Virus record (IMG/VR): IMGVR_UViG_3300035210_000132
Location: 156,596 to 199,134 of that record
Strand: one strand, 5' to 3'
DNA from: a virus
DNA: 42,539 nucleotides
Position 1 is the first letter of the stretch. Each line of letters begins with the position of its first letter. The notes below the pieces were generated by a model that saw nothing but the letters and a program-made list of their open reading frames with translations, ran no database searches and was not told where the DNA came from. Below are positions 12,273-42,539 of this stretch, one piece after another. A program made the position numbers and the translations under genes.

Positions 12273-12275
12273 ACT

Positions 12276-13043: not shown

Positions 13044-13128
13044 CAACATCCTCCCTGGTCTGGTAGCTAAGAAAGGCGCAGAGGCCTTTCTCTGAAATTA
13101 GCCAAGTTTACTCTTCTCAGCCTCATGA

Positions 13129-14876: not shown

Positions 14877-14907
14877 CTCTAATCTCCTTGATCGTCAGCG
14901 GTACGGG

Positions 14908-15252: not shown

Positions 15253-15274
15253 GGTCGTCGTCTCCTCGCCTTCC

Positions 15275-17817: not shown

Positions 17818-20800
17818 CTAGGCTGCCTCAAGAACTGCGCCCATCTGGGCCAGGGACGCCACCACACCGGCATTGGAGAGGTGCAGGTCCCTATCAGTGT
17901 ATGCCCCTGCTAGATACGCAAGCGAATCGGGGCCGAGTACGCTTGCTGACGAGACCTTGTCGATCCCACAGGCGAAGGCCTCTGCCAGGCTCCCTCCAAA
18001 AAAATTAGAGCAGAGCTGGGGATCGGAGGTCAGGAACAGCGAAATCTGGTTGGCCTTCTTGAGAAGAGCGCGACGGTAGCCGTTGTAGGCTGCCGCCAGC
18101 TTCTTCATGATCGGAGTGTCTGAGGTGTGCGGGGAAGGCTTACTAGCATGCCTTAGCTTGGAGGATCGAGCCCGAAGTGGTCCTTCGGCAGCGCTGCGAT
18201 CTCTACCAAAACCTAGGGAGGTTAGCAGGCTCTTCAGTCTTTGATCGACATGCTTGGCCCCGACGGGGATGGCATCGTCGACTTCGTCGGAGGGCCCGAA
18301 GGTCATGTGCTTGCGATCCAGGTCATCTGCTAGCTGCCGGTCACCCATCTGGATCAGGACAATCCGCTGAAACTCACGAGGCTTCAAAACGATACCCATC
18401 ATACCTGTGGTCGAGCAGGCTGTGCCAAGAGGTAATTTGCCCATTCGATCAAGCACGTCATTGGGTAGGTCGCGTTCTGAGCTTTCTAGCCGAGGCAGGG
18501 TCTTTTTGGTAAAGGGACCTGCTGGTATATCTTTAAGTATCTCGCTGAGCTTCTTGTGGGAAGCGTATTTTTCCGGAGTAATCCCAAAGATCGCCGAAGC
18601 TTCCTTCTCTAAGGAAGGAGCAGGCTTCTTCTCTTTGCCATCGCCGTTGTCCCCAAAGAGAGCTTGTAGGGCAGAAACCTCGACTTCATGAATCTCCCCG
18701 AAGTGCTCCTTGGCCCCTCCCATATGATGATCATAGGAGGCCCTAGCAGCAGCTTCCGAGGGATAGCCGATCATCACCTTGTTCTCATCGAAGGAGCCGT
18801 CCTTCTTGAGCTGCTTGATGACGTAGGCCTTCTTGGCGCTCTTGTCGGGGCCCAGGTAGACGTCGATCTCTTCACCATCGGCGTCCTTGGTTCCGGGGAT
18901 GTAGCCGTAGTGCGCCTTCATGAAGCGCTTGTACTTGACGACGCCGTTCTTCTTGTACTGCCGGGTCTCGCCCTTTTTCCACTCGATGTGGATGGGGACG
19001 TCCTGGTGTAACACCTTCTCCTTGATGGGGTCGTTGGCCGTTTTCTCCTTGCGGGTGGCCTTCTGCCGATCTCGATCCTGCTTCTCCTTCAGCTTCTGCG
19101 GATGGTCCTGGAAGTACTGGAGCATGTCCCCACAGGCCAGCTTGGCCATCTGGACAGCCTGCTGGAGAGCTGATCCAAGTTTCTCTGCCTGTCCCGAGGC
19201 ATCGATGTTGCGCTCTGGTTCGGCATCAGGGGTGCTGGTGCTCTTCTCGTACTCGGTGTAGAGCTTCTTGGTGCTCTTCTTTTTCTTCTCTTCGTCGCCC
19301 ATGAGCTCTTGCTTCATGCTCTGGAAAAGCGACGCAACTTTGGGTAGCCCCCCAACAGGAGGAGGAACACCTTCCCCGCGCAGTACGTTGGGACCTCTCA
19401 CCCGTTGAAATCGGAAGGGGTTGGCGAGGGGCTTGTACTCCGAGAGAGCTGGGGGAATCGCCGGAGCGTCAACTACCTTCTCATAGAAAGGGGAGTCGCT
19501 GACAGCACTCGTGCCTTGTCCCCTATACGGCCGAGGAAGCTCGGCGTGACCTCTTGGATCAACGGCTATGTGGTGTGTCCAGGGACCCTGCGCTCCTGGA
19601 GGGATCTTCCCTAGATCGTAGGCCCGCAGATTTTGAGGCACTACTCGTTTCTTAGCGGGCCCTACGTACCCTCCTGAGACTGAAGGGATGCCGCTGAACC
19701 ACCTAGGGCCTTCGCCAACATCGGCCCCAGGAACACTACCTCGGTACGCAAGACTCTCCGGATGAACTCCCGGGTGCTGAGCCGCCATTTCCGGAGTCAG
19801 TGTCTCAAGATTTGGAAGTTCAACCACATCGTTGGGAGAGTGCCGACCGGAGGCCATGATCTGCTCGGTTCTCGGATCTCGCGCATGCTGCACCTGAGCA
19901 AGCAGCTTCTTGTCGTACCAAGGCGCTGAGGGATAATTCGTCCTTTCGAGGGCCTCTGCTGGTCCGTAGGCGCGAGATCTCAGAAGACGGACAGTGGCGT
20001 CACTATGATCCCTTACGTACTCAGGGTAAGCAACGTTGGTAGCCGGGGAGAGCATCCGGTTGGCAATGGCCTGGCCTTCTGGACCGGTCGAGAGAATACC
20101 CTTGATGTGCTTTGTCGCAGACGCCCCTTGACCAGGAACGGTCTTAGAGGCAGCGGCAACGATGCGAGCCATCTGCTTCTGCCCTACAGCGGCCTTCAGA
20201 ATCGAGGCGTACTTCGTGGAAGGCGCTACAGTTCTGTAGTCATGGGTCTGAGTCAGAGGACCTGCCCCAGCACGATCTAGGTACGGAGGCTTAGAGACAA
20301 CTGCCCTACGTACAGTAGAAAGAGGCGAGGAGATAGCGCCAGGAGCTTTAACTGCAGGCAGAACCGCCGTCGTGGCTCCAGGAGAAGCAGGGCGCCAAGG
20401 AATAGAGGCAAGCTTCGCCATCACCTTGGCGGTCTTGTCTGCACCGATGAAGACGAAGGAGATGTCGAAGAACTTGGGGGTATCGTTCCTGACTCCGACC
20501 TTGCGTCCATCCGGGAGGATCTTGTTCATCATCGACTTCGCATGACTACAATAGTCACTGCGAGTCCTAGACTTGTTCTCACAGATGGTGCAAACGTCGT
20601 AGGGCACTTTGCAGCCCATCGACACGTCTGGATACTCGCCGTTCTCGATGCGCTCGATGAGATCGTAGGCGTCGAACTTCTTGCAGAGGGCCCTATCCAG
20701 GTAGATGACGAGCTCCACCCGGTGCATCTTCGGATTCCAGACAGCCAGCTCAACCCTACCAAAGGCCTTCGATGGATCCTTGTTGCTATGGTGCTTGTAA

Positions 20801-21159
20801 GGGAAGGCGTTCATGAAAGTGGGGAAGCCATAGTCCCACCGCTTGCCTACTTCGCGCATCTCCTCAGGAGAGAGCTGGTTCCAGTTGGGAGGCGCATGGA
20901 GAAGCGACTTCTCGGTAAAGATGTCCCCGTTGACGTTCTGGCCCCAGTACTCCGAGGCTCCCATGGCGTTGACGAGGACATAGATCCCTGCTGGCGTAGG
21001 ACGAACCGTACCTACAAAGTCCTGCACTGCGGGGTGTAGCTTCGAGCGCATCTCTTGAGAGGCAGCAGTCTTCTCGAGACCTTTGCCCACGAAGAGAGGA
21101 AGGCAGTTGATGTGCCCCTGCTCGTCAATACCCTTGAAGTGGCAGTACTTGATCATCAT
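17818..21159 (-). CDS. Large multidomain morphogenesis protein (1113 aa). The N-terminal ~250 aa resemble an HK97-family prohead serine protease. The remainder is uncharacterised and includes a lysine-rich linker and a segment VPIHIEWKKGETRQYKKNGVVKYKRFMKAHYGYIPGTKDADGEEIDVYLG.
   Basis: The N-terminus (...FPYKHHSNKDPSKAFGRVELAV...DVSMGCKVPYDVCTIC...) matches the recalled S78 pattern: a His in a nHd....iGkV context and a Ser in an SxG context. Translationally coupled to the upstream gene with a 9-nt gap. Confidence 0.4.
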   Translation of the reverse strand: MMIKYCHFKGIDEQGHINCLPLFVGKGLEKTAASQEMRSKLHPAVQDFVGTVRPTPAGIYVLVNAMGASEYWGQNVNGDIFTEKSLLHAPPNWNQLSPEEMREVGKRWDYGFPTFMNAFPYKHHSNKDPSKAFGRVELAVWNPKMHRVELVIYLDRALCKKFDAYDLIERIENGEYPDVSMGCKVPYDVCTICENKSRTRSDYCSHAKSMMNKILPDGRKVGVRNDTPKFFDISFVFIGADKTAKVMAKLASIPWRPASPGATTAVLPAVKAPGAISSPLSTVRRAVVSKPPYLDRAGAGPLTQTHDYRTVAPSTKYASILKAAVGQKQMARIVAAASKTVPGQGASATKHIKGILSTGPEGQAIANRMLSPATNVAYPEYVRDHSDATVRLLRSRAYGPAEALERTNYPSAPWYDKKLLAQVQHARDPRTEQIMASGRHSPNDVVELPNLETLTPEMAAQHPGVHPESLAYRGSVPGADVGEGPRWFSGIPSVSGGYVGPAKKRVVPQNLRAYDLGKIPPGAQGPWTHHIAVDPRGHAELPRPYRGQGTSAVSDSPFYEKVVDAPAIPPALSEYKPLANPFRFQRVRGPNVLRGEGVPPPVGGLPKVASLFQSMKQELMGDEEKKKKSTKKLYTEYEKSTSTPDAEPERNIDASGQAEKLGSALQQAVQMAKLACGDMLQYFQDHPQKLKEKQDRDRQKATRKEKTANDPIKEKVLHQDVPIHIEWKKGETRQYKKNGVVKYKRFMKAHYGYIPGTKDADGEEIDVYLGPDKSAKKAYVIKQLKKDGSFDENKVMIGYPSEAAARASYDHHMGGAKEHFGEIHEVEVSALQALFGDNGDGKEKKPAPSLEKEASAIFGITPEKYASHKKLSEILKDIPAGPFTKKTLPRLESSERDLPNDVLDRMGKLPLGTACSTTGMMGIVLKPREFQRIVLIQMGDRQLADDLDRKHMTFGPSDEVDDAIPVGAKHVDQRLKSLLTSLGFGRDRSAAEGPLRARSSKLRHASKPSPHTSDTPIMKKLAAAYNGYRRALLKKANQISLFLTSDPQLCSNFFGGSLAEAFACGIDKVSSASVLGPDSLAYLAGAYTDRDLHLSNAGVVASLAQMGAVLEAA

Positions 21160-23344: not shown

Positions 23345-24010
23345 ATGAGTAACTACATCACGAAAGAGAAAGCTGCAGAGATCCTCGACTGTTCGATCAA
23401 ATCCGTGTACCGCTACGCCAAGCGGGGCTTGATACGCACAAAGTACGAGGGGAAGAAGTTTTTTGTCAGTGAGGAGGATCTACACTCTCTGACCAAGGGG
23501 CGCAGGGATGTGATGAATTCCCCCTACACAAGGGATGTCATCAACATGCTAGTCCTGGACATGCAGACGGTGAAAACGCAGATGGCCACCGTGCTACGCA
23601 TCCTGAACATCAACTATGTGCCTTTGGGGTTGAGCGAGCACGAGTACCTGAACTTCTACCAGAGCGCCATACAGATGAGCACGGAAGGCTGGTCACCTCA
23701 TGTCGAGGACCAGTGGGCGGACTACTTTGTCCGGCTAAAGATAGAGGACTTGAACTCTATGGAGCGCATTACGGGGGATGAGCATCCCTGGAGACCTATT
23801 TTGAAGCTGGCTGCTAGTATGCACCTTCGTCCCTGGAACACAAGGCTGCGGGATCTCCTGGGATCGGGTAGGAGCAACGTCCATCAGGTGGCAGGAATGT
23901 GGTCAGTTCTTAAAGAACGCAGCCAGAAAGAGTTCCATATGCTCGTAGATCGAGATTCTGCCCCCTCGAGAAAGCTCATCAGGAAGCTAGCCAAGGACCA
24001 GGATCAGTAG
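23345..24010 (+). CDS. DNA-binding protein (221 aa) with an N-terminal excisionase/MerR-type helix-turn-helix and an uncharacterised C-terminal domain. Candidate regulator or small-terminase-like protein.
   Basis: The N-terminus ITKEKAAEILDCSIKSVYRYAKRGLIRTKYEGKKFFVSEEDL matches the HTH_17/Xis-family pattern. The gene looks AT-richer than the flanking operons. Confidence 0.6.
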   Translation: MSNYITKEKAAEILDCSIKSVYRYAKRGLIRTKYEGKKFFVSEEDLHSLTKGRRDVMNSPYTRDVINMLVLDMQTVKTQMATVLRILNINYVPLGLSEHEYLNFYQSAIQMSTEGWSPHVEDQWADYFVRLKIEDLNSMERITGDEHPWRPILKLAASMHLRPWNTRLRDLLGSGRSNVHQVAGMWSVLKERSQKEFHMLVDRDSAPSRKLIRKLAKDQDQ

Positions 24011-24049
24011 GCTAAAAATAGGCCAAAAAGGAGGATATAAGAAGATTGA

Positions 24050-24616
24050 GTGGATACAGACGTGTATCTGCGAAACCCCCTCTCTGGAGGCCTCATGGAT
24101 CACCATGTCCCGAGTGTCAATAGTGACCAGACACCCCAAACCCCCCAAACCCCTCTGCCCACTGCGGCAAACCCGTTCACCGAGCTGAGCCAGAATCTGG
24201 CGAACCTGGCGGCCCAGGTGGCCCGGCAGCACCAGGACTTCTCTGTGCTGAAGGGCTTTGTCGAGGCGCTGGCCAAGAACCAGCAGGCTGCCCCGGCTCC
24301 GGCTCCGGCCCCGGCTCCGGTCCTCGACGAGGCGCGCATCCGCGCCATCGCCGGAGCGGAAGTGGAGCTGAGGATCGGAAACCTCGACCGGCGCATCAAG
24401 GACGAGGTGGGAGCCGAGATGGTCAACCTGAAGGTTGACCTGCACCGGTACACGGACAAGGAGTTGGACCGCAGGCTCGAACAGCTGCGGTCGATGGTCG
24501 CCCAGGAGGGGCAGCACCCGGGGTTCTGGGACTCGGCCGTGCAAGGGTCGGGGTTCCTGTTCCCCATCGCCCTCGGCGGCGGTGCGGCGTACGCTGTCAA
24601 GAAGATCTTCTTCTAG
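24050..24616 (+). CDS. Tail-anchored membrane protein (188 aa by the GTG start; alternative ATG at 24095). Q/T/P-rich N-terminus, (PA)n linker, coiled-coil, C-terminal transmembrane helix GFLFPIALGGGAAYAVKKIFF.
   Basis: C-terminal hydrophobic helix followed by KKIFF-stop was read directly. AGGAGG lies upstream at 24029-24034. Contains a (CCGGCT)5 hexamer tract. Confidence 0.55.
   Translation: MDTDVYLRNPLSGGLMDHHVPSVNSDQTPQTPQTPLPTAANPFTELSQNLANLAAQVARQHQDFSVLKGFVEALAKNQQAAPAPAPAPAPVLDEARIRAIAGAEVELRIGNLDRRIKDEVGAEMVNLKVDLHRYTDKELDRRLEQLRSMVAQEGQHPGFWDSAVQGSGFLFPIALGGGAAYAVKKIFF
24292..24321. repeat. Imperfect hexanucleotide tandem repeat (CCGGCT)x5 encoding PAPAPAPAPV.
   Basis: Read directly as ccggct ccggct ccggcc ccggct ccggtc. 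Confidence 0.7.
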
Positions 24617-24636: not shown

Positions 24637-24671
24637 AAAGGGGCCCGGCAATATGCTGGGTCCCTTTTTTT
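24637..24671. terminator. Bidirectional rho-independent terminator between the convergent membrane-protein gene and the terminase gene.
   Basis: AAAGGGGCCC...GGGTCCCTTT stem with one G:U wobble, followed by TTTTTTT. The A tract upstream makes it symmetric. The terminase stop codon (24670-24672) overlaps the T tract. Confidence 0.6.
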
Positions 24672-27564
24672 AGCTCCTAGGTGTATGGGCTGAGTTGGGA
24701 GCGATGACATCAGGGCGAGGGTTGCGGATCATCGAAGCCAGGAAGCACACCAAGATGGCGTGGAAGGTATCGTCGGTAGAGTTGGGGGACTTCTTGTAGA
24801 CGTTCTGGCGCAGCTGCTCAGAATATTCCGAAAAAATATTCAGCATGTCGGACCCAAAGGGATTCTGGAATTGCTCCCAATTGGGGAACCGGAAGACGTT
24901 GCGACGCTTGATGGCGTTGAAGACATCCGACATGACCTCGGTCCTATGCACCAGGAAGCGCTTGAGGCCATCCTGCCACTGGACCTTCGTCGAGGGCTGC
25001 GAGTACTGGTACTTGACAATTCTCTGAAAACCAAAACGCCGGGTGAGCTCATCGTTGGGCCAGAAACCACCACCGTAGTCACAGCCCACCAGCTGCACGT
25101 TGTACTGGTGGATCAGCTTGGAGATCTCGTCGATTTGAATCTCTGGCTCCGACTCCCGACCCTCGTAGCGGTGCACGTAGAAGATGGAGAACTTGCCGTC
25201 ACCCATGTAGCATCCCAGGGTGAGAATAGTGTACGTACGTTCTCCTGTGTTCCCTTGGTAGGCGATGCAGCCATTCCTCTCAGTGACGATGTACCCGGAG
25301 GGCACGGTGCAGCAGTAGACCTTGCCGTTGTAAGGAACCTTCTCGATTCTCGTGCTGGGAGAGTTGAAGTGGTGATCCTGACCCCGAGACCACAGGACTC
25401 TCCAACGAGCCTTGCGGCCTTCCGATGCAGGCTTGTGCAAAACGAGCTTCGCTCGTAGCCCGAGCTTGATACACATCTCCTGGAAGTCTTCGCAGAGGCC
25501 CTTCGAGGTCGAATAGTAGGCTCCGTTGTAGTTCCCGGTCCTCGTATCGACGTGCCCGTCACCCAACATCATGGCCCAGAACAAGATGGAAAGCTGACGA
25601 CTCGAGAGTTCCAGGAACTGACGAGGGATCCTCTTCGTGTCGCCGGTGCGACCGACGTTTTTATCTACCCAGTCCCAGAACTGCTTGCCGCAGATGGTCC
25701 AGTTAACGTCCCCAGTCTTGGGGTTCGGGAACTCTGAGAACGGGATGTCATTACGACGGAAGCACTCTCGGATCTGAGCCACTCTCTCGGCGTTGACGGT
25801 TTCGCGCTGGGAGAGCTTGATGCAGTAGGGCTTTCCTTCTCTCAAGCAGAGACCGCCCTCGGACAGGTAGTACCCGAGGAACTCCAGCCATCCATCCATG
25901 CGGAACAGCGCATCCGAACTTCCCTGATAACCAGGAGACGTAGGCAGACCTGGAAGAACGAAAGCATCTTCTTCCTTGCCGAGCCAGATCACGGATCCGG
26001 CGAACTTCACGTGACCTCCACGCTCAGCAACTTCTCCGGCCGACTCCGTGACCCAGTCTTGCCACTCTCCGCCAGCTTGGGGCCGCACCCTCATCCGATG
26101 GGTGTGGGTGAGCATCATGTCGATGTTCTTCGACTTGAAGTGGAGAAGCGGCTGATCCCAGTCCCTGACCGTTCTGACTTTAGGAGTGACGTAGGACATT
26201 TCCCGCGTGGCTGGATCCCACTGCGCGACTTTGTCCTCGTCCGTCAAATCCTTGAAGTGAACGAACCCTCTAGGGGTGAGGATTTTGGTCTGTTCATCAT
26301 GGCAGCCCCAGTCAATTCCCGCATAGACAGGAAAAGCACCGCCGATGAAGTTGCGTATCTGTTCTTGATATTCCGTGGTCAGGAGCAAGCGGCTATCGCA
26401 GTTGTCAACCACGTCCTGACGAGTAAGAGGCCGGGTACCAGAGTCATATGACAGCCCCAACACTTCATTGTAGAAGCTCGGGCGCGAGTAGGTCTTCTGC
26501 TTCTGCAGGATGTCTTGATGGCCCACCCAGGGCACCATCAGCTGGGGGATGCGGTAGCCCTCGTAGGGACGGGGGATCTTCAGGTCCGGGTTCAGCGACA
26601 CCCACTGCGCCATGGGATCGCTGGCGGTGATGGCCTTCTTGCACTTCTCGCAGATCAGGCTCTCCGGACCGATGTGGTCTTCCGTGAGGATGTTCCAGTA
26701 GACTCGGGTGACCTTGCCGCCCCCTTGGATGCTGTGCCGATGGCAGGGCACGGCCCACTCGTTCTGGGTCGAGAAGTTCACCCAATAGTACTCCATGGTG
26801 TTGTCGAGAGACTTGGGCGTTCCTGAATAGATGAACAAACCTCCCTTGTGCTCCTCCCCGTTGATCATGAGCACAGAGTGGGAGGCACACTCCTCGATGA
26901 CGGGGATGTTGTCGGTGAGCAGGTCCTGAAGCTCATCCAAGCAAATCACGTCAGCCGGGATACCACGAACACGGTCGGCGTTCAGGTACGAGTAGCGCAG
27001 CGTGATCTGGCTGCGGTTGATGAACTTCTTCAAGAAGACGTTGTCGCTGAGCTTGGTGGTGGTCCAAGACTTGAGGTACGGTGAGGTCTCGATGGGTTCT
27101 TTGAGCCTGTCTTGTGAGAACACCTTGGTCTGCATGTTCGTGGGAGCGACATACAGGGAGTTCAGGGCGGTGTTGATGCAGGAGTAGGAGAGGAGCTTGT
27201 TGCCCAGCATGGTCGACTTTTCGACCTGCCGACCGCACTTGAGGAGGATATTCTTGGCTGGGGTGTCGTAGATCTGCTTTAGGTAGTGCCGATCGGCGAA
27301 AGAGAAGGGCTTGTACGTCTGCGACTTCTTGTCCGGCATCATGATGGCGAACTGCGTGAACTCAGAAGGAGTGATAGAAACCATCTCCCCCATCTTCTGG
27401 TTCAAGAACTCGACATCGAAGGTATCTTCTGGGTCAGCCTCGACATCCCACTCTTCAGGGAGGTTGATGCTGTGGTAATTCCGATCGTCGTAAGTAACTG
27501 TATGGTGTTCTTGTTCCCGTTCCCAACTTGACCGATCTTCTATGATCTCGAACGCCATAGACAC
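24670..27564 (-). CDS. terL: Terminase large subunit (964-aa precursor; ~612-aa mature protein after intein removal).
   Basis: Deviant Walker A KCGRQVEKST and Walker B ICLDE in the N-terminal ATPase domain. Nuclease motif AGIDWG with the extein resuming TGERTYTILTLG (RNase H-like beta strands). C-terminal region typical of TerL. The coding sequence is interrupted by an intein. Confidence 0.88.
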   Translation of the reverse strand: MSMAFEIIEDRSSWEREQEHHTVTYDDRNYHSINLPEEWDVEADPEDTFDVEFLNQKMGEMVSITPSEFTQFAIMMPDKKSQTYKPFSFADRHYLKQIYDTPAKNILLKCGRQVEKSTMLGNKLLSYSCINTALNSLYVAPTNMQTKVFSQDRLKEPIETSPYLKSWTTTKLSDNVFLKKFINRSQITLRYSYLNADRVRGIPADVICLDELQDLLTDNIPVIEECASHSVLMINGEEHKGGLFIYSGTPKSLDNTMEYYWVNFSTQNEWAVPCHRHSIQGGGKVTRVYWNILTEDHIGPESLICEKCKKAITASDPMAQWVSLNPDLKIPRPYEGYRIPQLMVPWVGHQDILQKQKTYSRPSFYNEVLGLSYDSGTRPLTRQDVVDNCDSRLLLTTEYQEQIRNFIGGAFPVYAGIDWGCHDEQTKILTPRGFVHFKDLTDEDKVAQWDPATREMSYVTPKVRTVRDWDQPLLHFKSKNIDMMLTHTHRMRVRPQAGGEWQDWVTESAGEVAERGGHVKFAGSVIWLGKEEDAFVLPGLPTSPGYQGSSDALFRMDGWLEFLGYYLSEGGLCLREGKPYCIKLSQRETVNAERVAQIRECFRRNDIPFSEFPNPKTGDVNWTICGKQFWDWVDKNVGRTGDTKRIPRQFLELSSRQLSILFWAMMLGDGHVDTRTGNYNGAYYSTSKGLCEDFQEMCIKLGLRAKLVLHKPASEGRKARWRVLWSRGQDHHFNSPSTRIEKVPYNGKVYCCTVPSGYIVTERNGCIAYQGNTGERTYTILTLGCYMGDGKFSIFYVHRYEGRESEPEIQIDEISKLIHQYNVQLVGCDYGGGFWPNDELTRRFGFQRIVKYQYSQPSTKVQWQDGLKRFLVHRTEVMSDVFNAIKRRNVFRFPNWEQFQNPFGSDMLNIFSEYSEQLRQNVYKKSPNSTDDTFHAILVCFLASMIRNPRPDVIAPNSAHTPRS
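25249..27304 (-). mobile_element. Intein (~352 aa, TerL residues 421-772) with an embedded LAGLIDADG homing endonuclease, inserted right after the catalytic GIDWG nuclease motif.
   Basis: Intein block A (C-HDEQTKILTPRGFVHFKDL), block B (MMLTHTHRM), two LAGLIDADG-like motifs (LEFLGYYLSEGGL and ILFWAMMLGDGHV), block F (VYCCTVPSGYIVTERNG) and a C-terminal ...CIAYQGN followed by Thr at +1. The penultimate residue is Gly instead of the usual His. Confidence 0.78.
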
Positions 27565-27593
27565 AACCCTACAGCAAGCTTAGACTTTTTGCA

Positions 27594-27893
27594 ATGCACC
27601 CCAAGCTCGCATGGATCCCAGGACTCCAAGAAGCCCTTAACGGAGCTATGGGGATTTCAATTGTAGCGACCGTCGAAGATCATGTAGATCCTCTGAAGAA
27701 GTTGGTGGTGCTGACGTTCAGCGAGGAGATTAGAAAAGGCGAGTATCAACCTATCCAGCATCTGGCGCAGGGCTTCGCCAAGGCCAATGACTGTGTCCTC
27801 GAGCGCATCCGTCGTAGGCCCAAAGCCTTGGTCCTGGAGATCCTAACCAAGCGAAGACTGGGGCCCATCAGTGACAAGAACCCCCTTTCCTAG
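27594..27893 (+). CDS. Hypothetical protein (99 aa), first gene of the plus-strand islet. Start uncertain (alternative MGISIVATV...).
   Basis: Complete ORF. No clear SD for the first ATG; a GGAG precedes the internal ATG. Confidence 0.4.
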   Translation: MHPKLAWIPGLQEALNGAMGISIVATVEDHVDPLKKLVVLTFSEEIRKGEYQPIQHLAQGFAKANDCVLERIRRRPKALVLEILTKRRLGPISDKNPLS

Positions 27894-27920
27894 AGATAAG
27901 GCACTACCAGGAGGAGTTAC

Positions 27921-28646
27921 ATGTCTTTTCTCATCTGCGGCATGGATGAGGTCGGTCGAGGAGCTTTAGCAGGCCCCCTCATCGCCGTAGCCGCCATGTT
28001 CGACGGAGAGCGAGAAGAAGAGAGCTGGAAGCGCGAGCACAGCCCCATCGAGGGCGTCAACGACTCGAAGGCCATCTCTACCCACGCCAAGCGCCTAGAA
28101 GTGTACCATCGTATTTTACGTAGCAAGCATCTTGTGGACTTTGGTATCGGAGAGATCTCCGCTGCTGAGATCAACGCAAAGGGCATCACCCAAGCTAACT
28201 TTTACGCCTTTCATAATGCGGTCTATGACACCAAGCCTGAGGCCCAGTGGTTACTGTTAGACGGGGACATCCCTTGTGGAAGCTGGCGCTACAGTGCGCA
28301 AGATTTTAGGCCCAAGGGGGATTCCTATTGGTGGCCAGTAGGAGCAGCCAGTATCCTGGCAAAAGTGATCCGGGATCGGTACATGATGGAGGTCGCCAAG
28401 GAGTTCCCTGACTATGGCTTCGAGAGCCACGTAGGTTATGGCACCAAGGTACACGAAGAGGCTCTGAGACGGCTGGGTCCGACGGTATACCATCGCACGC
28501 AGTTCATCCAAAAAATCTTGGGAGGAAGTTCGTATGATCAGTCGCTACCTGAACATGGTCCAAGAGTTCAACCGAGCCATCCAAGCCCCCAGAGGATGGG
28601 AAGCAAAAGGGCTCCGAGGGAAGCTCATCGTAGAAGAAGCGGGTGA
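27921..28646 (+). CDS. rnhB: Ribonuclease HII (241 aa).
   Basis: Motifs read directly and aligned to bacterial RnhB: GMDEVGRGALAGPL (DEVGRG), NDSKAIS, LLDGD, KGDS...ASILAKVIRD, FPDYGFESHVGYG, YHRTQF. AGGAGG RBS. The 3' end overlaps the next gene by 113 nt. Confidence 0.9.
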   Translation: MSFLICGMDEVGRGALAGPLIAVAAMFDGEREEESWKREHSPIEGVNDSKAISTHAKRLEVYHRILRSKHLVDFGIGEISAAEINAKGITQANFYAFHNAVYDTKPEAQWLLLDGDIPCGSWRYSAQDFRPKGDSYWWPVGAASILAKVIRDRYMMEVAKEFPDYGFESHVGYGTKVHEEALRRLGPTVYHRTQFIQKILGGSSYDQSLPEHGPRVQPSHPSPQRMGSKRAPREAHRRRSG

Positions 28647-29121
28647 GCTCCTGCATGCACTTCACGCGAAAGACCCCATCGCTCTGATCGACGGTATCTG
28701 TGATCTGCTCTATGTACTCTACGGAGCGGCGGACACCTTTGATCTCCCTCTAGGACGTATTGCCGAAGAAGACCTGCAACCTCGCATCCCTGCGCTGTCC
28801 TTCGAAGAGATCCAGGAGAATGCCAAAGACTTCCAGTCCACCATCGCCGGGGTGCTAGCCGACATCCAGATGCAGAATATCGGGATGCTTTTGGCTGGCC
28901 TACGTGATGCCATCGGAGGTTGCTGGTTGATCGCCAGTGAGGGCCTGGGCCTAGCCCTTGGACCCTTCTTCGAAGAAGTCCACCGCACCAACATGCTGAA
29001 GGTGACCGGCCCTGTCAGAGCCGATGGTAAGAAGCTCAAACCCGAAGGGTGGATCGGGCCTCGCATCGAGGACATGTACGCGAAGCGAAAAGGCATGCCG
29101 TGCCCAGAGGGTACTCCTTAG
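28534..29121 (+). CDS. mazG: MazG-like all-alpha nucleoside triphosphate pyrophosphohydrolase (195 aa).
   Basis: Acidic metal-binding helix motif KLIVEEAGELLHALHAKDP, a second conserved acidic helix (EEDLQ...FEEIQE), and phage house-cleaning context. GGAGG RBS. Confidence 0.55.
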   Translation: MISRYLNMVQEFNRAIQAPRGWEAKGLRGKLIVEEAGELLHALHAKDPIALIDGICDLLYVLYGAADTFDLPLGRIAEEDLQPRIPALSFEEIQENAKDFQSTIAGVLADIQMQNIGMLLAGLRDAIGGCWLIASEGLGLALGPFFEEVHRTNMLKVTGPVRADGKKLKPEGWIGPRIEDMYAKRKGMPCPEGTP

Positions 29122-29131
29122 GAGCAGTTCG

Positions 29132-29356
29132 ATGGCCGATCCTAAGGGGAAGGGTAAGAAAGAAGACCTGATCCCCACCAAACCACTACGTCCACTTCAC
29201 AACGATCCCGACTTCCATGCTTTCCGCCTCGAGTACAAGGTCGATCTGAAGACGGGCATCATTTATGTCACGTACGTCTGTTCCGACTGTGCACTCCGCC
29301 ATGTCGAGGTGCATGCTCCGGTTAAGAATTTTCATGCCCCCCTTAAAAAGGACTAA
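29132..29356 (+). CDS. Small protein (74 aa; MADPKGKGKKEDLIP...YVCSDCALRHVEVH) with a basic N-terminus and a CxxC motif.
   Basis: The ORF track starts it at 29024, inside mazG. The ATG at 29132 has an AGGAG RBS and begins right after the mazG stop. Confidence 0.45.
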   Translation: MADPKGKGKKEDLIPTKPLRPLHNDPDFHAFRLEYKVDLKTGIIYVTYVCSDCALRHVEVHAPVKNFHAPLKKD

Positions 29357-29359
29357 CGG

Positions 29360-29962
29360 ATGAAGAGCTTGGTCGTTGTCTGTGACCTCGACAGCATTGT
29401 CATCGATCTTCTTGGCCCCTGGTTAGACTGGTACAACAGCAAGTGGAAAGACTCTCTTACTGTGGATGACCTCGTCCAATACGACATCCACAAAATCGTC
29501 AACCCAGATTGTGGTACCCAGATCTACGACTTCCTACACGACAGCCCAGAACGCTATCGAAAACTGCCCCCTATTCAAGGGGCGGTCGCATCGCTGAAGC
29601 TCTTGCAAGATGCCGGGCATGATCTCATTCTAGCCTCTGCCGTACTGGGGGACACTGCTGGCGAGAAGTTCCGTTGGTGCCACCAGAACTTGCCGTTCCT
29701 ACCTACACAAAACCTCATGGTTGGGGCACGGAAAGAACGCATCTGGGGCGATATCTTCATCGACGATGCCCCCAAAAACTTACTGGCGTACCGAGCGTGC
29801 TGGTCCGAGGCTACGTTGATGTCGATCATGTACCCCTACAACCGCCACATGACGGCTCACGTCGATGTGCATGCCGACGGGTACCTAGACACAGGAAAAG
29901 CCTGGAGTGAGATAGTGAAGGCGATTCAAGATATCGCCGAGTATGATGAGCAGAATACGTAG
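29360..29962 (+). CDS. HAD-superfamily 5'(3')-deoxyribonucleotidase-like protein (200 aa).
   Basis: Motif I VVVCDLDSIVIDL (DxD), a mid motif LPPIQGAVASLKLL, and motif IV GDIFIDDAP. These align with mitochondrial/cytosolic dNT-1/2 (VLVDMDGVLADF ... LIDDRP). Confidence 0.65.
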   Translation: MKSLVVVCDLDSIVIDLLGPWLDWYNSKWKDSLTVDDLVQYDIHKIVNPDCGTQIYDFLHDSPERYRKLPPIQGAVASLKLLQDAGHDLILASAVLGDTAGEKFRWCHQNLPFLPTQNLMVGARKERIWGDIFIDDAPKNLLAYRACWSEATLMSIMYPYNRHMTAHVDVHADGYLDTGKAWSEIVKAIQDIAEYDEQNT

Positions 29963-29968
29963 AAGAAG

Positions 29969-29991
29969 AGAAAGACCGCCCTGGTCTTTCT
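29969..29991. terminator. Hairpin terminator between the convergent nucleotidase gene and the minus-strand operon end.
   Basis: AGAAAGACC-gccct-GGTCTTTCT, a 9-bp perfect stem immediately after the TAG at 29960-29962. Pyrimidine/U-rich flank on the minus-strand side. Confidence 0.5.
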
Positions 29992-29997: not shown

Positions 29998-30285
29998 TCA
30001 GACAGCGTAAGGGCCGTACGGAGAGGCTTGTTCCTGGGCTACGACAGAGGGCACATAGTTCAGGGCAGCTGCTCGGTCACGCTCTCTCTGAGTCTGATGG
30101 ATACTCTTCACCTGGTTCCCTACGAAACCTGCCGTTCCTCCGATGGCTGCTCCCGCACCAGTACCGATGACCTTCCCTGCCACTGAGTTAGGAGCCGCAA
30201 GGAAACCCCCTACGGCTCCTACGGTACCGGCAAGTGCGATCTTGGTGAGCTCGTCACGGAAGCCTTGGATCATGGCCAAGCGCAT
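29998..30285 (-). CDS. Small Gly-zipper membrane protein (95 aa), last gene of the RNAP-led operon. Holin-like or pore-forming candidate.
   Basis: IALAGTVGAVGGFLAAPNSVAGKVIGTGAGAAIGGTAGFVG read directly (repeated GxxxG/A), with a charged C-terminus. Confidence 0.45.
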   Translation of the reverse strand: MRLAMIQGFRDELTKIALAGTVGAVGGFLAAPNSVAGKVIGTGAGAAIGGTAGFVGNQVKSIHQTQRERDRAAALNYVPSVVAQEQASPYGPYAV

Positions 30286-30683: not shown

Positions 30684-31549
30684 ACCTCAACCTCATCAGA
30701 AGGAGCCTCAAGCATCTTGACGCCTGAGTTGGAGTAATTGCCGTCCGGGGCCAGCTCCCTCATACCTGGAGGGGTCTTCTTGCTGTGCTGCATGCGGAAC
30801 TGTTCGAAGGCCTTGAGCGAATCTTTCAAAGCTCCATCAGCTTGGGAGAGCTGCATGTCCAAGAGAGTAGCCGACCGGGCCAGGGCGGAGAATGCCTTTG
30901 TACGGCTGAGCCCGTGCTCCTTGGTCTTCCACTCCCTGAAGTCGAAGTACACGCCTTCCAACATGTCTTTGAGGATGGTCTTCGAGTCGATGGACTGCTG
31001 GAAGCCCATCTTGTGGAGAGCCATGGCTGGGCCCACCTGAATGATCGACAGCGTGTTCTGGCGCTGAGTGTCGTAGTCTTTCAGTAGCTGTGACCAGTCT
31101 TCCACAGTGAGTCTAGCGACATTCCAGTAGTAGTGCCCGTAGGCCTCGATGCCCTCACTCGTGAAGAACTCCCCCAAACGAGCATTGGCCTTCTTGGCGA
31201 TCTCTTTAGGATCCATGCGGCCCAGCAAGAGGTTCTCGACAATAGGACGAGCTCGTAGGTTGATTACCAAGAGCTGCGCTTCTCGGGAGGGCTTGTCTGG
31301 GTTGTGTAGTCCGTAGATACCTTCCGCCCTCATGAACCTCACAGACTCTCTGTGATAGCGATTGTTGGGCTGGAAGTTAGAAGGCCGTCTCGAGTTGAGG
31401 TCGGCTCGCAGCCACATGAGGTAGTCTTGCTCTGGCAAGGGGAAGCCCAGAGAGACTAGGGTCGTAGCAACCCACTGATCCTGCCCTGACTGAGGATGGC
31501 TCGAGGTCATGAGGAACTTGCAGAAGTTCGCGCTAGGATGCGGGATCAT
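30680..31549 (-). CDS. Hypothetical protein (~289 aa from MIPHPSANF...).
   Basis: The ORF track begins at 31582. The ATG at 31549 has an AGGAGG RBS 5 nt upstream and forms an ATGA overlap with the C39 peptidase stop. Confidence 0.5.
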   Translation of the reverse strand: MIPHPSANFCKFLMTSSHPQSGQDQWVATTLVSLGFPLPEQDYLMWLRADLNSRRPSNFQPNNRYHRESVRFMRAEGIYGLHNPDKPSREAQLLVINLRARPIVENLLLGRMDPKEIAKKANARLGEFFTSEGIEAYGHYYWNVARLTVEDWSQLLKDYDTQRQNTLSIIQVGPAMALHKMGFQQSIDSKTILKDMLEGVYFDFREWKTKEHGLSRTKAFSALARSATLLDMQLSQADGALKDSLKAFEQFRMQHSKKTPPGMRELAPDGNYSNSGVKMLEAPSDEVEV

Positions 31550-32079
31550 GTGGCCTCCTGGGGCAGGATCACAATACCCCACTTATGGACTACCTCGTGT
31601 GGAGGTTCCATCTTATGATCCCACCATCGCGACTCCATCTCTGTTAGTGGGATGGTGCGTTGGTTACTGGGTGTGTTTGGATCCATGAGGTGGGCCTGTA
31701 CCTGATCCATAGACACCAACACGACATAGTGGCCCTTGCCCGGATGGTTCCAACTCTGTACGTCACAAATGATGGGTATTTGCTGGTCCAGCAAGATCTT
31801 GGCTTGCTTTAGAGAGTCGAAGCTGTACTCAAAGGCATCAAGCCCATACTGCCGAGCAGCTTCAGCAATCTCCGTGACCTCGGCACCTCTACCAGGACGA
31901 GCACCGATCAACTGCACCGCGGCCTCTTCTTCGATAGGAATGCCGTAGTGCTCAAGCACCGCCTTGAAGCACGCAGCGGAACAAGTCCACTGGGTCTTCT
32001 GCTGGTAGGGGCTGACCTTGGCGATCTTCTCGAGCTCGCTCAGGTGCTGTGTAGCTAGAATGTCACGGAGAATGCCCAT
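31546..32079 (-). CDS. Standalone peptidase C39-family (double-glycine/bacteriocin-processing-type) papain-like cysteine peptidase (177 aa).
   Basis: The full domain pattern was read directly: oxyanion Gln and catalytic Cys in SPYQQKTQWTCSAACFKAVLEHYG (C39 Q-x6-CG-x-A-x-L), then NHPGKGHYVVLVSMDQ...HLMDP (His, Asp, DP). Confidence 0.72.
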   Translation of the reverse strand: MGILRDILATQHLSELEKIAKVSPYQQKTQWTCSAACFKAVLEHYGIPIEEEAAVQLIGARPGRGAEVTEIAEAARQYGLDAFEYSFDSLKQAKILLDQQIPIICDVQSWNHPGKGHYVVLVSMDQVQAHLMDPNTPSNQRTIPLTEMESRWWDHKMEPPHEVVHKWGIVILPQEAT

Positions 32080-35416: not shown

Positions 35417-38400
35417 TTAATAGTAGTGCGGCCTTTCTTTCGTGCCCAAGCCAAATTCGCTCCCACGCGCGTAAGCTGGGATCGGGTTACTCCCGTGCAG
35501 GTCTGTCTTCCAACCCTTTGCCGTACCCTCGAGAAGAGTGTGACGGAGCTCCTGGAAATTCAGGCGGGCCAGCCAGTCTTCGTGCTGATCCCTAGCCATC
35601 TGCTCCGCTCCTCTCAGGATCGGTTCATGGAGGATAGGCTTGCCTCCAGACTTGAGGTTCTTGTTGAAGTCCTCGACCACGCTTCTCTGAGCAAAGTCTC
35701 CATGAAGATGCTCTGAGTCTCCTGGATCTTTCACCTGTGTGATGTTGGTCAAGGCGCGAACCACGGTTTCGATGTTACGCCGCTTTACCCGGGCATCCTT
35801 GTAGACCGAGGTGTGGAGCTGATCTGTCAGGAAGTTCTGCACTTGATGAATGTCAGTATACTTGAGGAGGTCTCTTGGATTAATAAGACCGTCAGAGAGA
35901 GCTTCGCCTTTCTTGACGTCCATCCCAGTTTTCAAGGGCTGTCCCTCATACATCGGCTCACGCTGGGCCGAGATGAAGTGCTTCTCTCCTCCCACAAAAA
36001 TGTTCCAGCCATTGGTGGCTATGTCTTTCTCTATCTTCTGGATAGGGCCAGAAGCGCGAGAAAGCACGGCGGCGTTGCGTAACACCTTGGGCATCTCGAG
36101 CAACTGATTCAAGCGATCGAACTTGGTCAAAGATCCCCCTCCCTTGGAAGAGGCCACACCACCTGTGTGGAAGCTATCCATGGCCAACTGGGTTGCGGGC
36201 TCTCCCATGGCATGCCCAGCAATGACCCCAATGTTGGCACCCACCTCGTGAGTGTTCCCACTCTCGTTGAGGCCGTAACACTTGGCGCAAATGCCTTGGT
36301 GGTGAGCACACTTCAGAGGAGAGCGCACCACCACTTTGTCGATGTTGTGCTTCTTGAGAGTGGCTAGTAGGTTGCCGTCTATCAAAGACCCTGCTGCGAT
36401 GCTCTGGCCTCCGGGAAGCTTCACAGGAGCCGCCAAGTAGCGATCGGCGACGTCGTCCTCGGAGGTATGCAGCATGATGCCTTGGGTAGTGCCGCAGTCC
36501 TTGGACTCGATCATGTTGGGGATGACAACGTTGACAATTTCCTTGGTCAAACGCCCAGGCTCCGAGGTCCCTTCTACCTTCTGGATAGTGCCCTTGCGTG
36601 CTCCATGCATGGCCGTCCAGTAGTCTCCTGTGTCCAGGCCCTCAGAGTAAGACTTCTTCACAGGCGTAGTAAGCACATTCCCTAAAGCATCTTGCATGAG
36701 CATTGGAGCGATCGTCATCTGACGAAACTGGTCCATACTGCTACGTGCCCCAGAGTTCACCATCATGTAGGCATTGTTCTGAGACTTCTCGAAGAGAGGT
36801 CGTGTGTCCCTGACCATGTCCGAGGTAGCCTGTGTGTAGATGCCTATGACACGTTCTTTCTTCTGCTCGGGAGCAAGCTTGCTGTCACTGTGTATCTTGG
36901 CCACTTCGGCGTCGGCCTTGCGCAGAATGGCGTCACGGATTTCTTTGTGAACAGTCAAGTCGCTAAGGTTCAAGGTCGACCCCAGCTCGTAGCTGTACTG
37001 GTTACCTAGATTCTTCAGGTTATCAACAGTGACGGGGAAGTTCTTCGGGTCTTCCTTGGCAATGCGCCCTAGTAAGTTGTGCACCCCAAAACGCTTCTCG
37101 TCTTTCTTGTCTGTACGCTTGACGAACACGAAGTTAGGGTCTTGGAACAGACCGATGATCGCCGGGTCATGGCGAATTGATTCTGGTAGGTGCTCAGAGA
37201 TCAACTCGCGCCCTAGGGTAGTCTTCTTGCTTGCGATGCTCACTACGTCGTTGACGTGCAAAGCGCTCTGCGCTTGTGCCTTCTTGGCTTCTGCTAGCGT
37301 ATGAAAGCTCTTCCCTGTCTCCTTGCCCCACTTCGAGAGCATGTGCAGCCCTAGCATTGACTCGTGGTCAGGCGCATACATGATCCCGCCTGTGGTGCTG
37401 GAGAACAAGTTGTTCGACGGAAACATCTTGTGCGCCTCTTTGACGGCATCGTCCCCAAGGGGAACGAAGGCAGACATAGCATCGCCATCAAAGTCAGCGT
37501 TGTAGCCCGTGCATACCAGGGGATGGATCTTGATGGCTCGGCCTTCTACCAGCTTGGGCTTGAAGGCCATAACCCCAAACTTGTGGAGCACGGGGTCGCG
37601 CTTGAGTAGAATGGGCCGTTTGTCCATCGCTGCTTGCAGGGAGTGCCATGCAATCTTGGAACCTTGCTTGATCTCTTTCAGGGCCTGAATCGGGTCGTAG
37701 CCACTGAACTGCATCTCCCTGACCACGAACGGCTTGTAGAGCTCCATCGCTGAGTCTTTCGGGATGCCTACGTGATCCAGATCCATAGAAGGTTCTGGGA
37801 TGATGGTCGAGCGCATCGATAGCTCTTGCCGTCGCTTCATGAGCTTCTTCTGGAAGTAACCTTCTTTGGGAGAGGTCCCAGAAATGGTGTCCAGAATGCC
37901 CTTCATCTTGCGGTTGGACTCGTAGAGGGGCTTACCTCCAGGAAGTCCAGCTAGACCTCGGGTGTACTCGTAGAGATCTTCCCTGAGATCCTTCAGGCCC
38001 TCGTCGCCGAGCTCCTTCGGGGCCTCTTTGTACTGCTTGATGACGTGCCCGAGCGACTTGTAGTAGTAGTTGATGTCGTCTGGACGGAGGGCTCCGTCTG
38101 GCATGGGGACGATGGGGCGGTAGACAGGAGGCAGAACAGGTATGTGGTTCAGCATGTAAGCCTCCGTTGGCTTCATGCCGATACCGTCCAGGGCTTGCAG
38201 GAACTTGGTCTTGCGGTTGGCTTTGTCTAGCTGTGAGCCGCGAAGAGAGCCTAGGCTGGCCTTAACCTTTACCAGCTCCTCCTTGACGTTGATCTTCGCC
38301 AAGAGGCTATTGATCGCTGCCCCTCCGGTCTTGCCATCGATAGAAGTGTGGCCTCTAGCTATTTCCTCGAACTCATCGAACTTAAGACCCGTAAGAACAA

Positions 38401-41734: not shown

Positions 41735-41898
41735 CCGTGCGCTCCTGCTGTGAGGTTCCGGTTATGTACGAGGTCGAACAGCCCTACATCTAAGCGCTAA
41801 GACGATCCTCGGGCCGCTTCGACCAATATCAGAGTAGGTGTAAGCCGTCGTGGGAGTCAACAAAAACAAAGACTTTTATGTCATAAGTAGACTGAACT

Positions 41899-41920
41899 AC
41901 CCTCTACATAGTGGGTAGTT
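41899..41920. promoter_or_regulatory. Inverted repeat CTACCC-(10 nt)-GGGTAG in the divergent region upstream of the RNAP operon. Candidate operator.
   Basis: Read directly (ctaccctctacatagtgggtag). Lies within the ~470-nt non-coding gap between the RNAP start and the rightward genes. Confidence 0.35.
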
Positions 41921-41938
41921 GGAAAGGTCAGAGCGCAG

Positions 41939-42073
41939 ATGAGCGACGCGTATGTTTTTAGGGCGGCGGAGGGTGGACCTGAGGATGAAGAAGACGACAG
42001 CAGCAGCACCTACGAAGATCGTGTGGACGATGCCCTGACCGGCGATTCCGACTCGAGTACGGAGGATGACTAG
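41939..42073 (+). CDS. Small highly acidic protein (44 aa; MSDAYVFRAAEGGPEDEEDDSSSTYEDRVDDALTGDSDSSTEDD). Speculatively a DNA-mimic or early anti-host candidate.
   Basis: ATG at 41939 with GGAAAGG about 12 nt upstream and TAG at 42071-42073. Below the track size cut-off. About 45% D/E/S. Confidence 0.35.
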   Translation: MSDAYVFRAAEGGPEDEEDDSSSTYEDRVDDALTGDSDSSTEDD

Positions 42074-42208
42074 GAACATGTGGAGATTGAAGCTATACGC
42101 CTTGATGATCATCCATCAAATACTTGGCTACATCATCCAATCGATGATGCAGAACTACGCTCAGTTGGCGTAACCCATGGAGGAGGGAAATAAGGAAGCG
42201 TTCTGCCG

Positions 42209-42539
42209 TCTCCTGTTCATGTCCAACGGAGGCAGGATGACGGAAGCGGGCAAGCCCGACCCGAACTTCAGGGCTCGGGGCATGTGCTCGGATCCGTACG
42301 ACTGCTTTAGTTGCAACGTGATGCAAGCCGAGCTGGCCAGGCACCCCCCTGGGCAGGTTATCTGGGTATGCCCAGATTGTATCAAAGTCGCAGTCACCAA
42401 ATCAAAAGATGGCGGGCTTCCTTATCTACTCCCTGGGCACTACAGCGAGGGGCAGTGCCAATTGCGCACCTGCTCCCGACCGGCAAGGACAGAAGAAGGG
42501 GTCGAGCTACCGCCTGGGTATTCCCGATTTCTCCAACTG
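42209..42539 (+). CDS. Partial Cys-rich protein (>=110 aa, runs off the right edge): ...CSDPYDCFSCNV...WVCPDCIKV...EGQCQLRTCSRP. Putative zinc-finger protein.
   Basis: Open frame from the ATG at 42209 (or 42227) to the window end. No stop, so it is absent from the ORF track. The overlapping minus-strand ORFs are short and artefact-like. Confidence 0.4.

Follow-up and report, generated by a model that had tools for sequence, protein, structure and literature searches.

A conserved plus-strand cassette with predicted RNase HII, pyrophosphohydrolase and 5'(3')-deoxyribonucleotidase genes in an uncultured jumbo-phage lineage

The DNA analysed here, referred to as the window, is a 42,539-nt piece (positions 156,596 to 199,134 of IMG/VR record IMGVR_UViG_3300035210_000132) of a 199,134-bp JGI contig from a jumbo phage, and not a whole genome. 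Between the gene for the terminase large subunit (terL) on one side and, on the other, a minus-strand operon that starts with the gene for a 2105-aa RNA polymerase (RNAP), five plus-strand genes form what we call the cassette. A first-pass annotation, made from the sequence letters without database searches, had described these five genes as bounded by the divergent terminase start and a terminator hairpin; a check of the open reading frames (ORFs) recovered all five, spanning 27594-29962, and both boundaries were seen, as a 35-nt gap and as a hairpin at 29969-29991. Its description of the surroundings as an otherwise minus-strand structural genome was inexact on two counts: a second plus-strand patch is found at 23345-24616, beyond the terminase, and the window is only part of the genome. 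The features of the region are the following, in window coordinates.

27559-27593, no strand: divergent gap of 35 nt between terL and i99, from the sequence.
27594-27893, plus strand: i99, a 99-aa lineage-specific protein, the first cassette gene in all cases, with no match among family profiles.
27921-28646, plus strand: rnhB, a predicted bacterial-type RNase HII of 241 aa (Pfam RNase_HII, NCBIfam, PDB).
28534-29121, plus strand: a predicted DR2231-like, all-alpha nucleoside triphosphate (NTP) pyrophosphohydrolase of the MazG/HisE superfamily, 195 aa (Pfam PRA-PH, PHROG, PDB, fold).
28534-28646, plus strand: same-strand overlap of 113 nt between rnhB and the pyrophosphohydrolase gene, from the sequence.
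29132-29356, plus strand: a basic CxxC/His mini-protein of 74 aa, recognised by its sequence motif, with no match among family profiles.
29360-29962, plus strand: a predicted NT5C-family (HAD) 5'(3')-deoxyribonucleotidase of 200 aa (Pfam PF06941, PDB).
29969-29991, no strand: hairpin between the convergent cassette and the minus-strand operon that runs from the RNAP gene to g95 (terminator scan, folding energy).

Spacings inside the cassette are, in order, 27, -113, 10 and 3 nt, and Shine-Dalgarno sequences of the GGAGG type precede four of the five genes. Profile searches agreed with the identities proposed earlier for the products, namely RNase HII, a MazG-superfamily NTP pyrophosphohydrolase, a CxxC mini-protein and a deoxyribonucleoside monophosphate (dNMP) 5'(3')-nucleotidase. 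In sequence, the three enzymes are intact, and all their catalytic residues are conserved.

The product of rnhB is predicted to be an intact bacterial-type RNase HII, that is, a type 2 RNase H, expected to cleave on the 5' side of a ribonucleotide. It matched Pfam PF01351 (E 3e-30; score 106 bits, cutoff 25.8; aa 6-197, with a model of 199 positions), the NCBIfam equivalog NF000595 (score 169.7, cutoff 167) and bacterial RNase HII structures in the PDB (E 7e-24), and its catalytic domain takes up aa 4-197 (27930-28511). In an alignment of 14 sequences of its clade, the DEDD residues D9, E10, D114 and D134, the G12-R13-G14 motif, K50 and Y173 were invariant or nearly so; the catalytic carboxylates, the GRG motif and the tyrosine coincided with their positions in solved bacterial enzymes, Y173 being the counterpart of the conserved tyrosine that senses the 2'-OH at the RNA-DNA junction. 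The protein thus shares with bacterial RnhB (5y9p, 7uwe, 3o3f) the full catalytic domain, the DEDD and GRG motifs and the junction-sensing tyrosine, and differs from it in being phage-encoded and in carrying a unique C-terminal tail of 39 aa.

Identity is 44-63% within the phage clade of RnhB proteins, and 35-42% for the bacterial-type RNase HII loci and phage-database matches that were recovered. The loci came from a metagenome scan with the RNase HII alignment, run with generic back-translated patterns, and are probably bacterial and outside the phage lineage. The earlier remark that a bacterial RNase HII is an unusual phage cargo was borne out by a search of 50,697 phage records, 20 of which had a match, several of these 20 looking like bacterial DNA. 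RNase HII is therefore rare in sequenced phages, yet all members of this uncultured jumbo-phage lineage that were examined have it. The intact rnhB ORF was also absent from a collection of 15 billion proteins in which neighbours from the same contig are present, and it was missed in the Logan gene calls of an identical contig (L012, ORF at 9388-10113). The absence from public gene calls is probably due to the 113-nt overlap with the next gene, as gene callers disallow long same-strand overlaps, the limit in Prodigal being about 60 nt.

The pyrophosphohydrolase matched PRA-PH in Pfam (E 7e-11) and, among the PHROG families, phrog_671 (E 9e-24), which is annotated as 'nucleotide pyrophosphohydrolase'. 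Its solved relatives in the PDB search were only DR2231 of Deinococcus, found with E 4e-11 from the single sequence and E 7e-22 from the family profile, and one uncharacterised NTP pyrophosphohydrolase. The metal ligands of the EExxE...(E/D)xxD motif (E34, E35, E38, D53 and D57) were invariant among 14-17 family members. An AF2 model (pLDDT 95) was all-helical, and the top 25 Foldseek matches in the PDB were all DR2231 chains (probability 0.97-1.0, target-normalised TM up to 0.65). From sequence and model, we place the protein with DR2231 (2yeu, 5hva), with which it shares the EExxE...(E/D)xxD helices and a C-terminal EVHR(T/A)N...GP.R.DGK.LKPEGW motif. The two proteins differ in that their identity is about 25%, E79 of DR2231 is replaced by Asp, and a helical insertion of about 65 aa (aa 72-137), with two extra helices, sets the phage family apart. 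An earlier review counts DR2231 among the MazG-like enzymes and credits it with cleavage of dUTP (PMC5122711), and the title of another paper gives it 'exclusive activity on dUTP' (Mota et al. 2016, FEBS J 283:4274, cited in PMC10014863). A dUTP specificity of the phage enzyme would follow from DR2231 only, and the insertion could change it. Some clade members (L003, P0129, P0131) carry a C-terminal zinc ribbon fused to the pyrophosphohydrolase. The long form of the enzyme has homologues of about 30% identity in Pseudomonas siphophages, and an IMG/VR scan with the family alignment recovered the pyrophosphohydrolase at 80 unrelated viral loci, as a common stand-alone phage gene; no NT5C, rnhB, i99 or CxxC gene was found near it at these 80 loci.

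A connection of this enzyme to MazZ and to the Z-genome phages had been suggested in the first-pass annotation, and it found no support in profile, alignment or fold comparisons. MazZ of the S-2L/phiVC8 type (7ODY) is likewise an all-alpha member of the NTP pyrophosphohydrolase superfamily with an EExxE helix, but it is 105 aa long and gave no significant sequence, profile or fold match to the protein of the window. The family profile did not retrieve 7ODY even at E<=10, hhalign against S-2L MazZ (gene from MW334946) gave a probability of 22.5% over 40 columns that covered the shared EExxE helix only, and MazZ was absent among the PDB fold matches, so that membership of the MazZ family was ruled out. 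Similarly, tblastn with PurZ and DatZ of S-2L against the window and contigs L013 and L014 (the window plus about 17 kb of flanks, about 60 kb in all) gave a best E of 1.2-1.8, and a search of the window and these flanks with S-2L PurZ, DatZ and MazZ gave nothing better than E 0.3. No Adenylsucc_synt or HD match was seen in the Pfam scan, which covered 27 of the 33 modelled genes of the window and left out six ORFs of 115-173 aa (11781-13049, 14394-15312 and 24095-24616).

The last gene of the cassette, named 5'(3')-deoxyribonucleotidase by JGI, is predicted to encode such an enzyme. Its product matched Pfam PF06941 (E 1e-31, 110.6 bits against a cutoff of 24.8) and, in the PDB, 3bwv and the mitochondrial and cytosolic deoxyribonucleotidases (E 2.5e-7 to 1e-4). 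The nucleophile motif D9-L-D11 (CDLDS, aa 8-12) and D135-D136 (IDDAPKN, aa 134-140) align with 3bwv and 2jao. It resembles mammalian cdN/mdN and the 5'(3')-deoxyribonucleotidase of Bacillus phages SPbeta and phi3T in the HAD signature, the DxD nucleophile and the DD motif, and homologues occur in SPbeta-like and several large phages; it differs from the characterised members in its identity of 25-30% and in its fixed association with rnhB and a DR2231-like pyrophosphohydrolase, which is specific to the lineage of the window.

The other two products had no match in Pfam, PHROG or NCBIfam. For the CxxC mini-protein, the longest ORF begins at 29024, but the ATG at 29132 has an AGGAG Shine-Dalgarno sequence and agrees with the N-termini of homologues. 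A search of 1.84 billion representatives brought up only seven relatives, including two with tandem repeats of a Y-[IV]-C-x-x-C-x-x-x-H-V motif, and the protein probably binds zinc. A homologue in L006 (44% identity) lies between rnhB and the pyrophosphohydrolase gene, and the position in the cassette varies among relatives. Kinship with the zinc ribbon of the L003, P0129 and P0131 pyrophosphohydrolases was considered and left unsupported, as the order of ligands is CxxC..H against H..H.CxxC and the two do not align. Regarding i99, all its 37 homologues, of about 100 aa, are on contigs of the same phage lineage. Its AF2 model (pLDDT 90.5) has an alpha-beta-beta-alpha-beta-beta topology, and fold searches in the PDB and BFVD gave weak or borderline matches (best E 0.03 and 0.0011, TM about 0.5) that were functionally uninformative, with weak resemblances to ferredoxin-like or permuted-S6 folds.

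Comparison with related contigs revealed a conserved gene order: terL (minus); i99, rnhB, ..., pyrophosphohydrolase, ..., NT5C (plus); then g95, g132, g289, a C39 peptidase gene, g736, g374 and the fused RNAP gene (minus). The cassette occupies the same position in the IMG/VR contig L003 (with four genes), in a 39.5-kb Logan contig from SRR8554898, and in L007, L008/L009, L176, L177 and L178. In L010/L011, it is present without NT5C, and the distant L001 has kept rnhB but lacks i99, the pyrophosphohydrolase and NT5C. Thus, i99, rnhB and the pyrophosphohydrolase are in place in all complete relatives examined but L001, and NT5C in all but L010 and L001. Identities with relatives were 52-60% for rnhB, 38-49% for the pyrophosphohydrolase, 41-48% for NT5C and 43-71% for i99, and 36-43% (g132), 51-66% (g289) and 60-67% (C39) in the flank, so the divergence of the cassette proteins is on par with that of flanking core genes. 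Presence is patchy only for the CxxC gene and for extra genes that relatives carry in the interior of the cassette, which encode an R2K ATP-grasp protein, an AAA ATPase, a Tad2-like protein (PF11195, anti-Thoeris family) and an RNA ligase (PF09414). The extra genes lie at the following positions.

L007: 1285-1566.
L177: 8144-9046.
L008: 10612-11391.
L010: 10624-11880.

The interval is a recurrent site of insertion, possibly of counter-defence genes, of which the Tad2-like and RNA ligase genes would be examples. As for composition, the earlier claim of an AT-richer islet was right in direction (GC 0.543 against 0.566 +/- 0.016 for 2.4-kb windows), but the shift is small and within the spread of the flanks (5.7th percentile, about 1.4 standard deviations low). 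GC at third codon positions was 0.643 against 0.671, the pooled codon log-likelihood fell at the 9.5th percentile of same-size blocks, and the codon z-scores of the single cassette genes, between -0.9 and -2.9, lie well inside those of the genome (-8.7 to +6.4). A composition uniform with the flanks and conservation of the same genes in the same place are what had been named beforehand as marks of core rather than accessory status, and the description of the islet as accessory (moron-like) does not hold. The region is a conserved core cassette with a flexible interior, of which the window carries a near-minimal version.

The 113-nt overlap between rnhB and the pyrophosphohydrolase gene, pointed out in the first-pass annotation as unusually long, was confirmed at 28534-28646. 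The best 120 RNase HII homologues, about 198-215 aa long, reach over no more than 81-86% of the 241-aa ORF, so the last 39 residues are unique to this genome; this tail (from 28527) is rich in Pro, Ser and Arg and owes its sequence to an alternative frame of the following gene. Five relatives (L003, L007, L010, L176 and L177) close rnhB with a 4-nt ATGA or GTGA overlap with the next gene, and the overlap is 1 nt in L008, 11 nt in L178 and 29 nt in L006; overall, relatives other than L006 have overlaps of 1-11 nt or none. An ATGA is present in the window too (28534-28537), with a TGA that lies in frame -1 of rnhB and is thus out of phase. In L006, the nearest relative and from a different assembly, the ATGA is passed in the same phase, with a 3-nt difference in the spacer and a read-through of 29 nt. 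In the sublineage of the window, the rnhB frame would run out of phase past the ancestral ATGA stop/start junction and would continue in an alternative frame of the following gene until a stop is reached, the position of this first stop setting the length of the overlap. The tail is probably disordered and inert. Programmed -1 or +1 frameshifting at the 3' end of rnhB was rejected by inspection, as neither an X XXY YYZ heptamer in the 0 frame nor an in-frame stop or a hungry codon is present.

At the left boundary, alignment with relatives placed the terminase start at the ATG at 27558 and not at the GTG at 27564, so the divergent gap measures 35 nt. In this gap (27559-27593), there is no Shine-Dalgarno sequence and no space for two ordinary promoters. 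The gap between terL and i99 is 35-38 nt in L003 and L008, both with GTG starts, and 12 nt in L010 (8474-8485). A sigma-70-like match of 9/12 at 27558-27586 (TAGACA-17-TAGACT) is not conserved and occurs at chance frequency, three such matches being found against 3.4 expected; a leaderless mRNA from this sequence was accordingly discarded, given also the GTG starts of relatives and their non-conserved gaps of down to 12 nt. The promoters must lie within coding sequence or be unconventional. At the right boundary, the hairpin at 29969-29991 has a stem of 9-10 bp and a loop of 5 nt (-15.3 kcal/mol, z -3.6, plus strand) and is common to the cassette and to a convergent gene at 29998-30285. Hairpins of other sequence are found at the same junction in L003 (-20.8) and in L008 (-17.8, then UUUU), and the hairpin of the window is a probable bidirectional intrinsic terminator.

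Around the cassette, the lineage is marked by a fused beta-beta' RNAP, an intein-bearing gpA-type terminase and an InPase-domain protein. These and other neighbouring genes are the following.

17818-21159, minus strand: 1113-aa protein with an InPase domain (PF18823, inorganic pyrophosphatase, aa 708-833), at the same position in all relatives.
23345-24010 and 24095-24616, plus strand: second plus-strand patch, with a 221-aa HTH_17 protein and a 173-aa ORF, conserved in relatives.
24670-27558, minus strand: gpA-type terminase large subunit of 962 aa with a LAGLIDADG intein of about 357 aa at ...GIDWG|C...YQGN|TGE...
31546-32079, minus strand: C39-family papain-like peptidase protein of 177 aa inside the operon from the RNAP gene to g95, in all relatives, where it often has 300-350 aa.
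35417-41734, minus strand: fused RNAP of 2105 aa in a single ORF, with beta-like Rpb2 domains 3, 6 and 7 and beta'-like Rpb1 domains 1-5.
L013 2161-5820, about 1.3 kb past the right end of the window: class II (B12-type) ribonucleotide reductase of 1219 aa, with an intein and HNH.

The nearest cultured homologues of the RNAP, about 30% identical, belong to Vibrio phages D181, D148 and D69 and Salmonella phage Arash, and the RNAP gene carries inteins in relatives (2624 aa in L008, 3705 aa in L010). The terminase intein is absent from the 605-aa homologue of L003, and one or two are found in L001, L008 and L010. The second plus-strand patch is followed by a strong hairpin with a T-run at 24637-24667 (-25.9 kcal/mol, z -4.2), convergent with terL. 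The HTH_17 protein may have a regulatory function or serve as the small terminase, and the InPase-domain protein is possibly a virion or ejected protein. The roughly 800 nt upstream of the RNAP gene (41735-42539) have no ORF above 83 aa, a slightly low GC and no significant repeats, and scans of the window found no Rfam families or tRNAs. The ribonucleotide reductase gene beyond the window shows that the phage has further nucleotide-metabolism genes. A blastn search of the region against the 50,697 phage records gave no match, and scans of GTDB genomes with i99 and terL found no relatives and thus no clue to a host or prophage. The lineage is a possible but uncertain member of the Caudovirales with multisubunit RNAPs described by Weinheimer and Aylward, whose terminases matched a Pfam family other than that of the window terminase (PMC7481178).

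With regard to function, the earlier suggestion of sanitising the deoxyribonucleoside triphosphate (dNTP) pool or excising ribonucleotides stays the best reading of these homologies. RNase HII would nick RNA-DNA junctions and single embedded ribonucleotides, removing primers and misincorporated ribonucleoside monophosphates (rNMPs) from the phage DNA, a role that belongs to RNase H1 or FEN nucleases in large phages of other kinds. RNase H1, assigned to primer removal, is present in all group-1 jumbo phages with multisubunit RNAPs, and the task of RNA or primer removal falls to RNase H1 in phiKZ-like jumbo phages and to the FEN-type RNase H in T4 (PMC7824862). The enzyme of the window would share with these the proposed removal of primers or RNA in a large phage with its own transcription apparatus, but it is a type 2 RNase H, of an unrelated family. 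The DR2231-like enzyme would hydrolyse dUTP, or another unwanted dNTP, to the dNMP and pyrophosphate, and the NT5C enzyme would dephosphorylate dNMPs, dUMP and dTMP being preferred by characterised members. Together with the nearby class II ribonucleotide reductase, the cassette enzymes would shape the pool of precursors and clean both this pool and the DNA made from it.

We consider it likely, as one joint proposal and with a single degree of confidence for all its parts, that the five co-directional, tightly packed genes form a single transcription unit, that this unit is a vertically inherited part of an uncultured jumbo-phage lineage, and that it would serve in the removal of ribonucleotides or primers and the clearance of dUTP and dNMPs. 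Several points weigh against this proposal. The assigned roles are predicted from homology; the substrate of the pyrophosphohydrolase is taken from a homologue of about 25% identity that lacks the 65-aa insertion; and two of the five genes, i99 and the CxxC gene, match no family. The codon z-scores of all five genes are mildly negative, so their history or expression class may differ slightly from that of the other genes. The 35-nt gap is too short for conventional promoters, and a search of it gave no credible one; the roles may be redundant if the remaining 140 kb or so encodes a FEN nuclease, RNase H1 or a canonical dUTPase.

Two alternative accounts concern the history of the locus and its sequence; the data favour neither the first of these nor the functional alternatives below. 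That the five genes are a recently acquired, moron-like islet of optional fitness benefit, dropped between the terminase and the RNAP operon, would fit their strand, opposite to that of their neighbours, their GC of 2.3 points under the window mean, the differing extra genes that relatives carry in the interval, and a CxxC gene that relocates or is missing; but i99, rnhB and the pyrophosphohydrolase occupy the same junction in all complete relatives examined except L001, NT5C does so in all but two, their divergence tracks that of the core genes alongside, neither base composition nor codon usage stands out, and the plus-strand orientation is itself conserved, as is that of the second patch beyond terL. 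We regard such a recent acquisition as very improbable. The long overlap, on the other hand, could be the product of a sequencing or assembly frameshift, as the first-pass annotation had asked, the true rnhB of about 205 aa ending at the TGA of the ATGA at 28534-28537. The tail without homologues and the ATGA found just where five relatives close the gene would speak for it, and one extra base within 28510-28534, where an A6 run lies at 28510-28515, would restore the stop. However, the C-terminal consensus of the clade, F-[IV]-x-K-[IY]-[VLM]-G, backs the present frame across the A6 run, and the C-terminus of the closest homologue (...QGILGGKDERQATRQR; ...QGILGG...) agrees with the 0 frame of the window through KILGG. 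An extra A in the run was rejected on these grounds, as it would give ...KNLGRKFV* at the ATGA, whereas homologues keep K-[IY]-[VLM]-G and the nearest one ILGG. In addition, L006 passes the ATGA in the same phase in a different assembly, and over 20.6 kb, the overlap site included, the Logan assembly of SRR10968280 shows no difference from the window, although its reads are possibly shared with the JGI assembly. An artefact of this kind thus seems unlikely.

The other two alternatives give the enzymes a different purpose. Classical Bacillus phages with hydroxymethyluracil or uracil in their DNA purge a normal nucleotide, as MazZ and DatZ do in Z-genome phages, and a pair made of an NTP pyrophosphohydrolase and a dNMP 5'-nucleotidase was historically described in thymine-replacing phages. 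The resemblance of the cassette pair to the latter raises the idea that its pyrophosphohydrolase and nucleotidase act as a dTTP/dUTP-ase and dTMP-ase, or an analogous couple, which excludes a canonical nucleotide from a modified genome. In a doubtful extension of it, the two would be the exclusion arm of a base-replacement pathway (e.g., thymine/uracil substitution) with its biosynthetic arm in the remaining 140 kb or so, and RNase HII would have been retained since host repair enzymes cannot handle or reach the modified DNA. The homologues in Pseudomonas siphophages, the proposal that MazG-like enzymes of jumbo phages degrade unmodified NTPs (PMC7824862) and the fact that about 140 kb of the contig lies beyond the sequence examined would be in line with it. 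Against it, the enzyme resembles MazZ only in the motif of the superfamily, and searches of about 60 kb gave neither PurZ nor DatZ. Among the Pfam matches of the scanned window genes and of 20-kb loci from ten relatives, none is to a deaminase, a kinase or a thymidylate-synthase-like protein. In addition, the nearest homologue of characterised activity does house-cleaning and is specific for dUTP, and the pyrophosphohydrolase occurs without NT5C at the 80 unrelated viral loci. Nucleotide exclusion is, in our view, an unlikely purpose. Even less probable is a device for initiating replication, in which R-loops or primers made by the phage RNAP at an origin would be trimmed by RNase HII to give 3'-OH primers, in a ColE1-like manner, the nucleotide enzymes being co-located by chance. 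It would agree with rnhB as the most conserved gene of the cassette, kept in L001 without the pyrophosphohydrolase and NT5C, with an RNAP encoded by the lineage itself, and with the suggestion of Iyer et al. that multisubunit RNAPs may prime replication in jumbo phages bearing RNase H1 (PMC7824862). It is, though, purely inferential, and no origin-like repeats were seen near the cassette. Moreover, bacterial RNase HII is best at cleaving junctions and single rNMPs, the classical processor of R-loops being RNase HI.

In conclusion, the enzymes of the cassette are ordinary members of known families and do not overturn current understanding. What the analysis corrects is an annotation gap, as an intact RNase HII gene had been hidden from public gene calls, probably by a long overlap, and a type 2 RNase H, a family nearly missing from cultured phages but fixed in a widespread uncultured phage lineage, offers a lead on how primers and ribonucleotides may be removed without RNase H1 or FEN.

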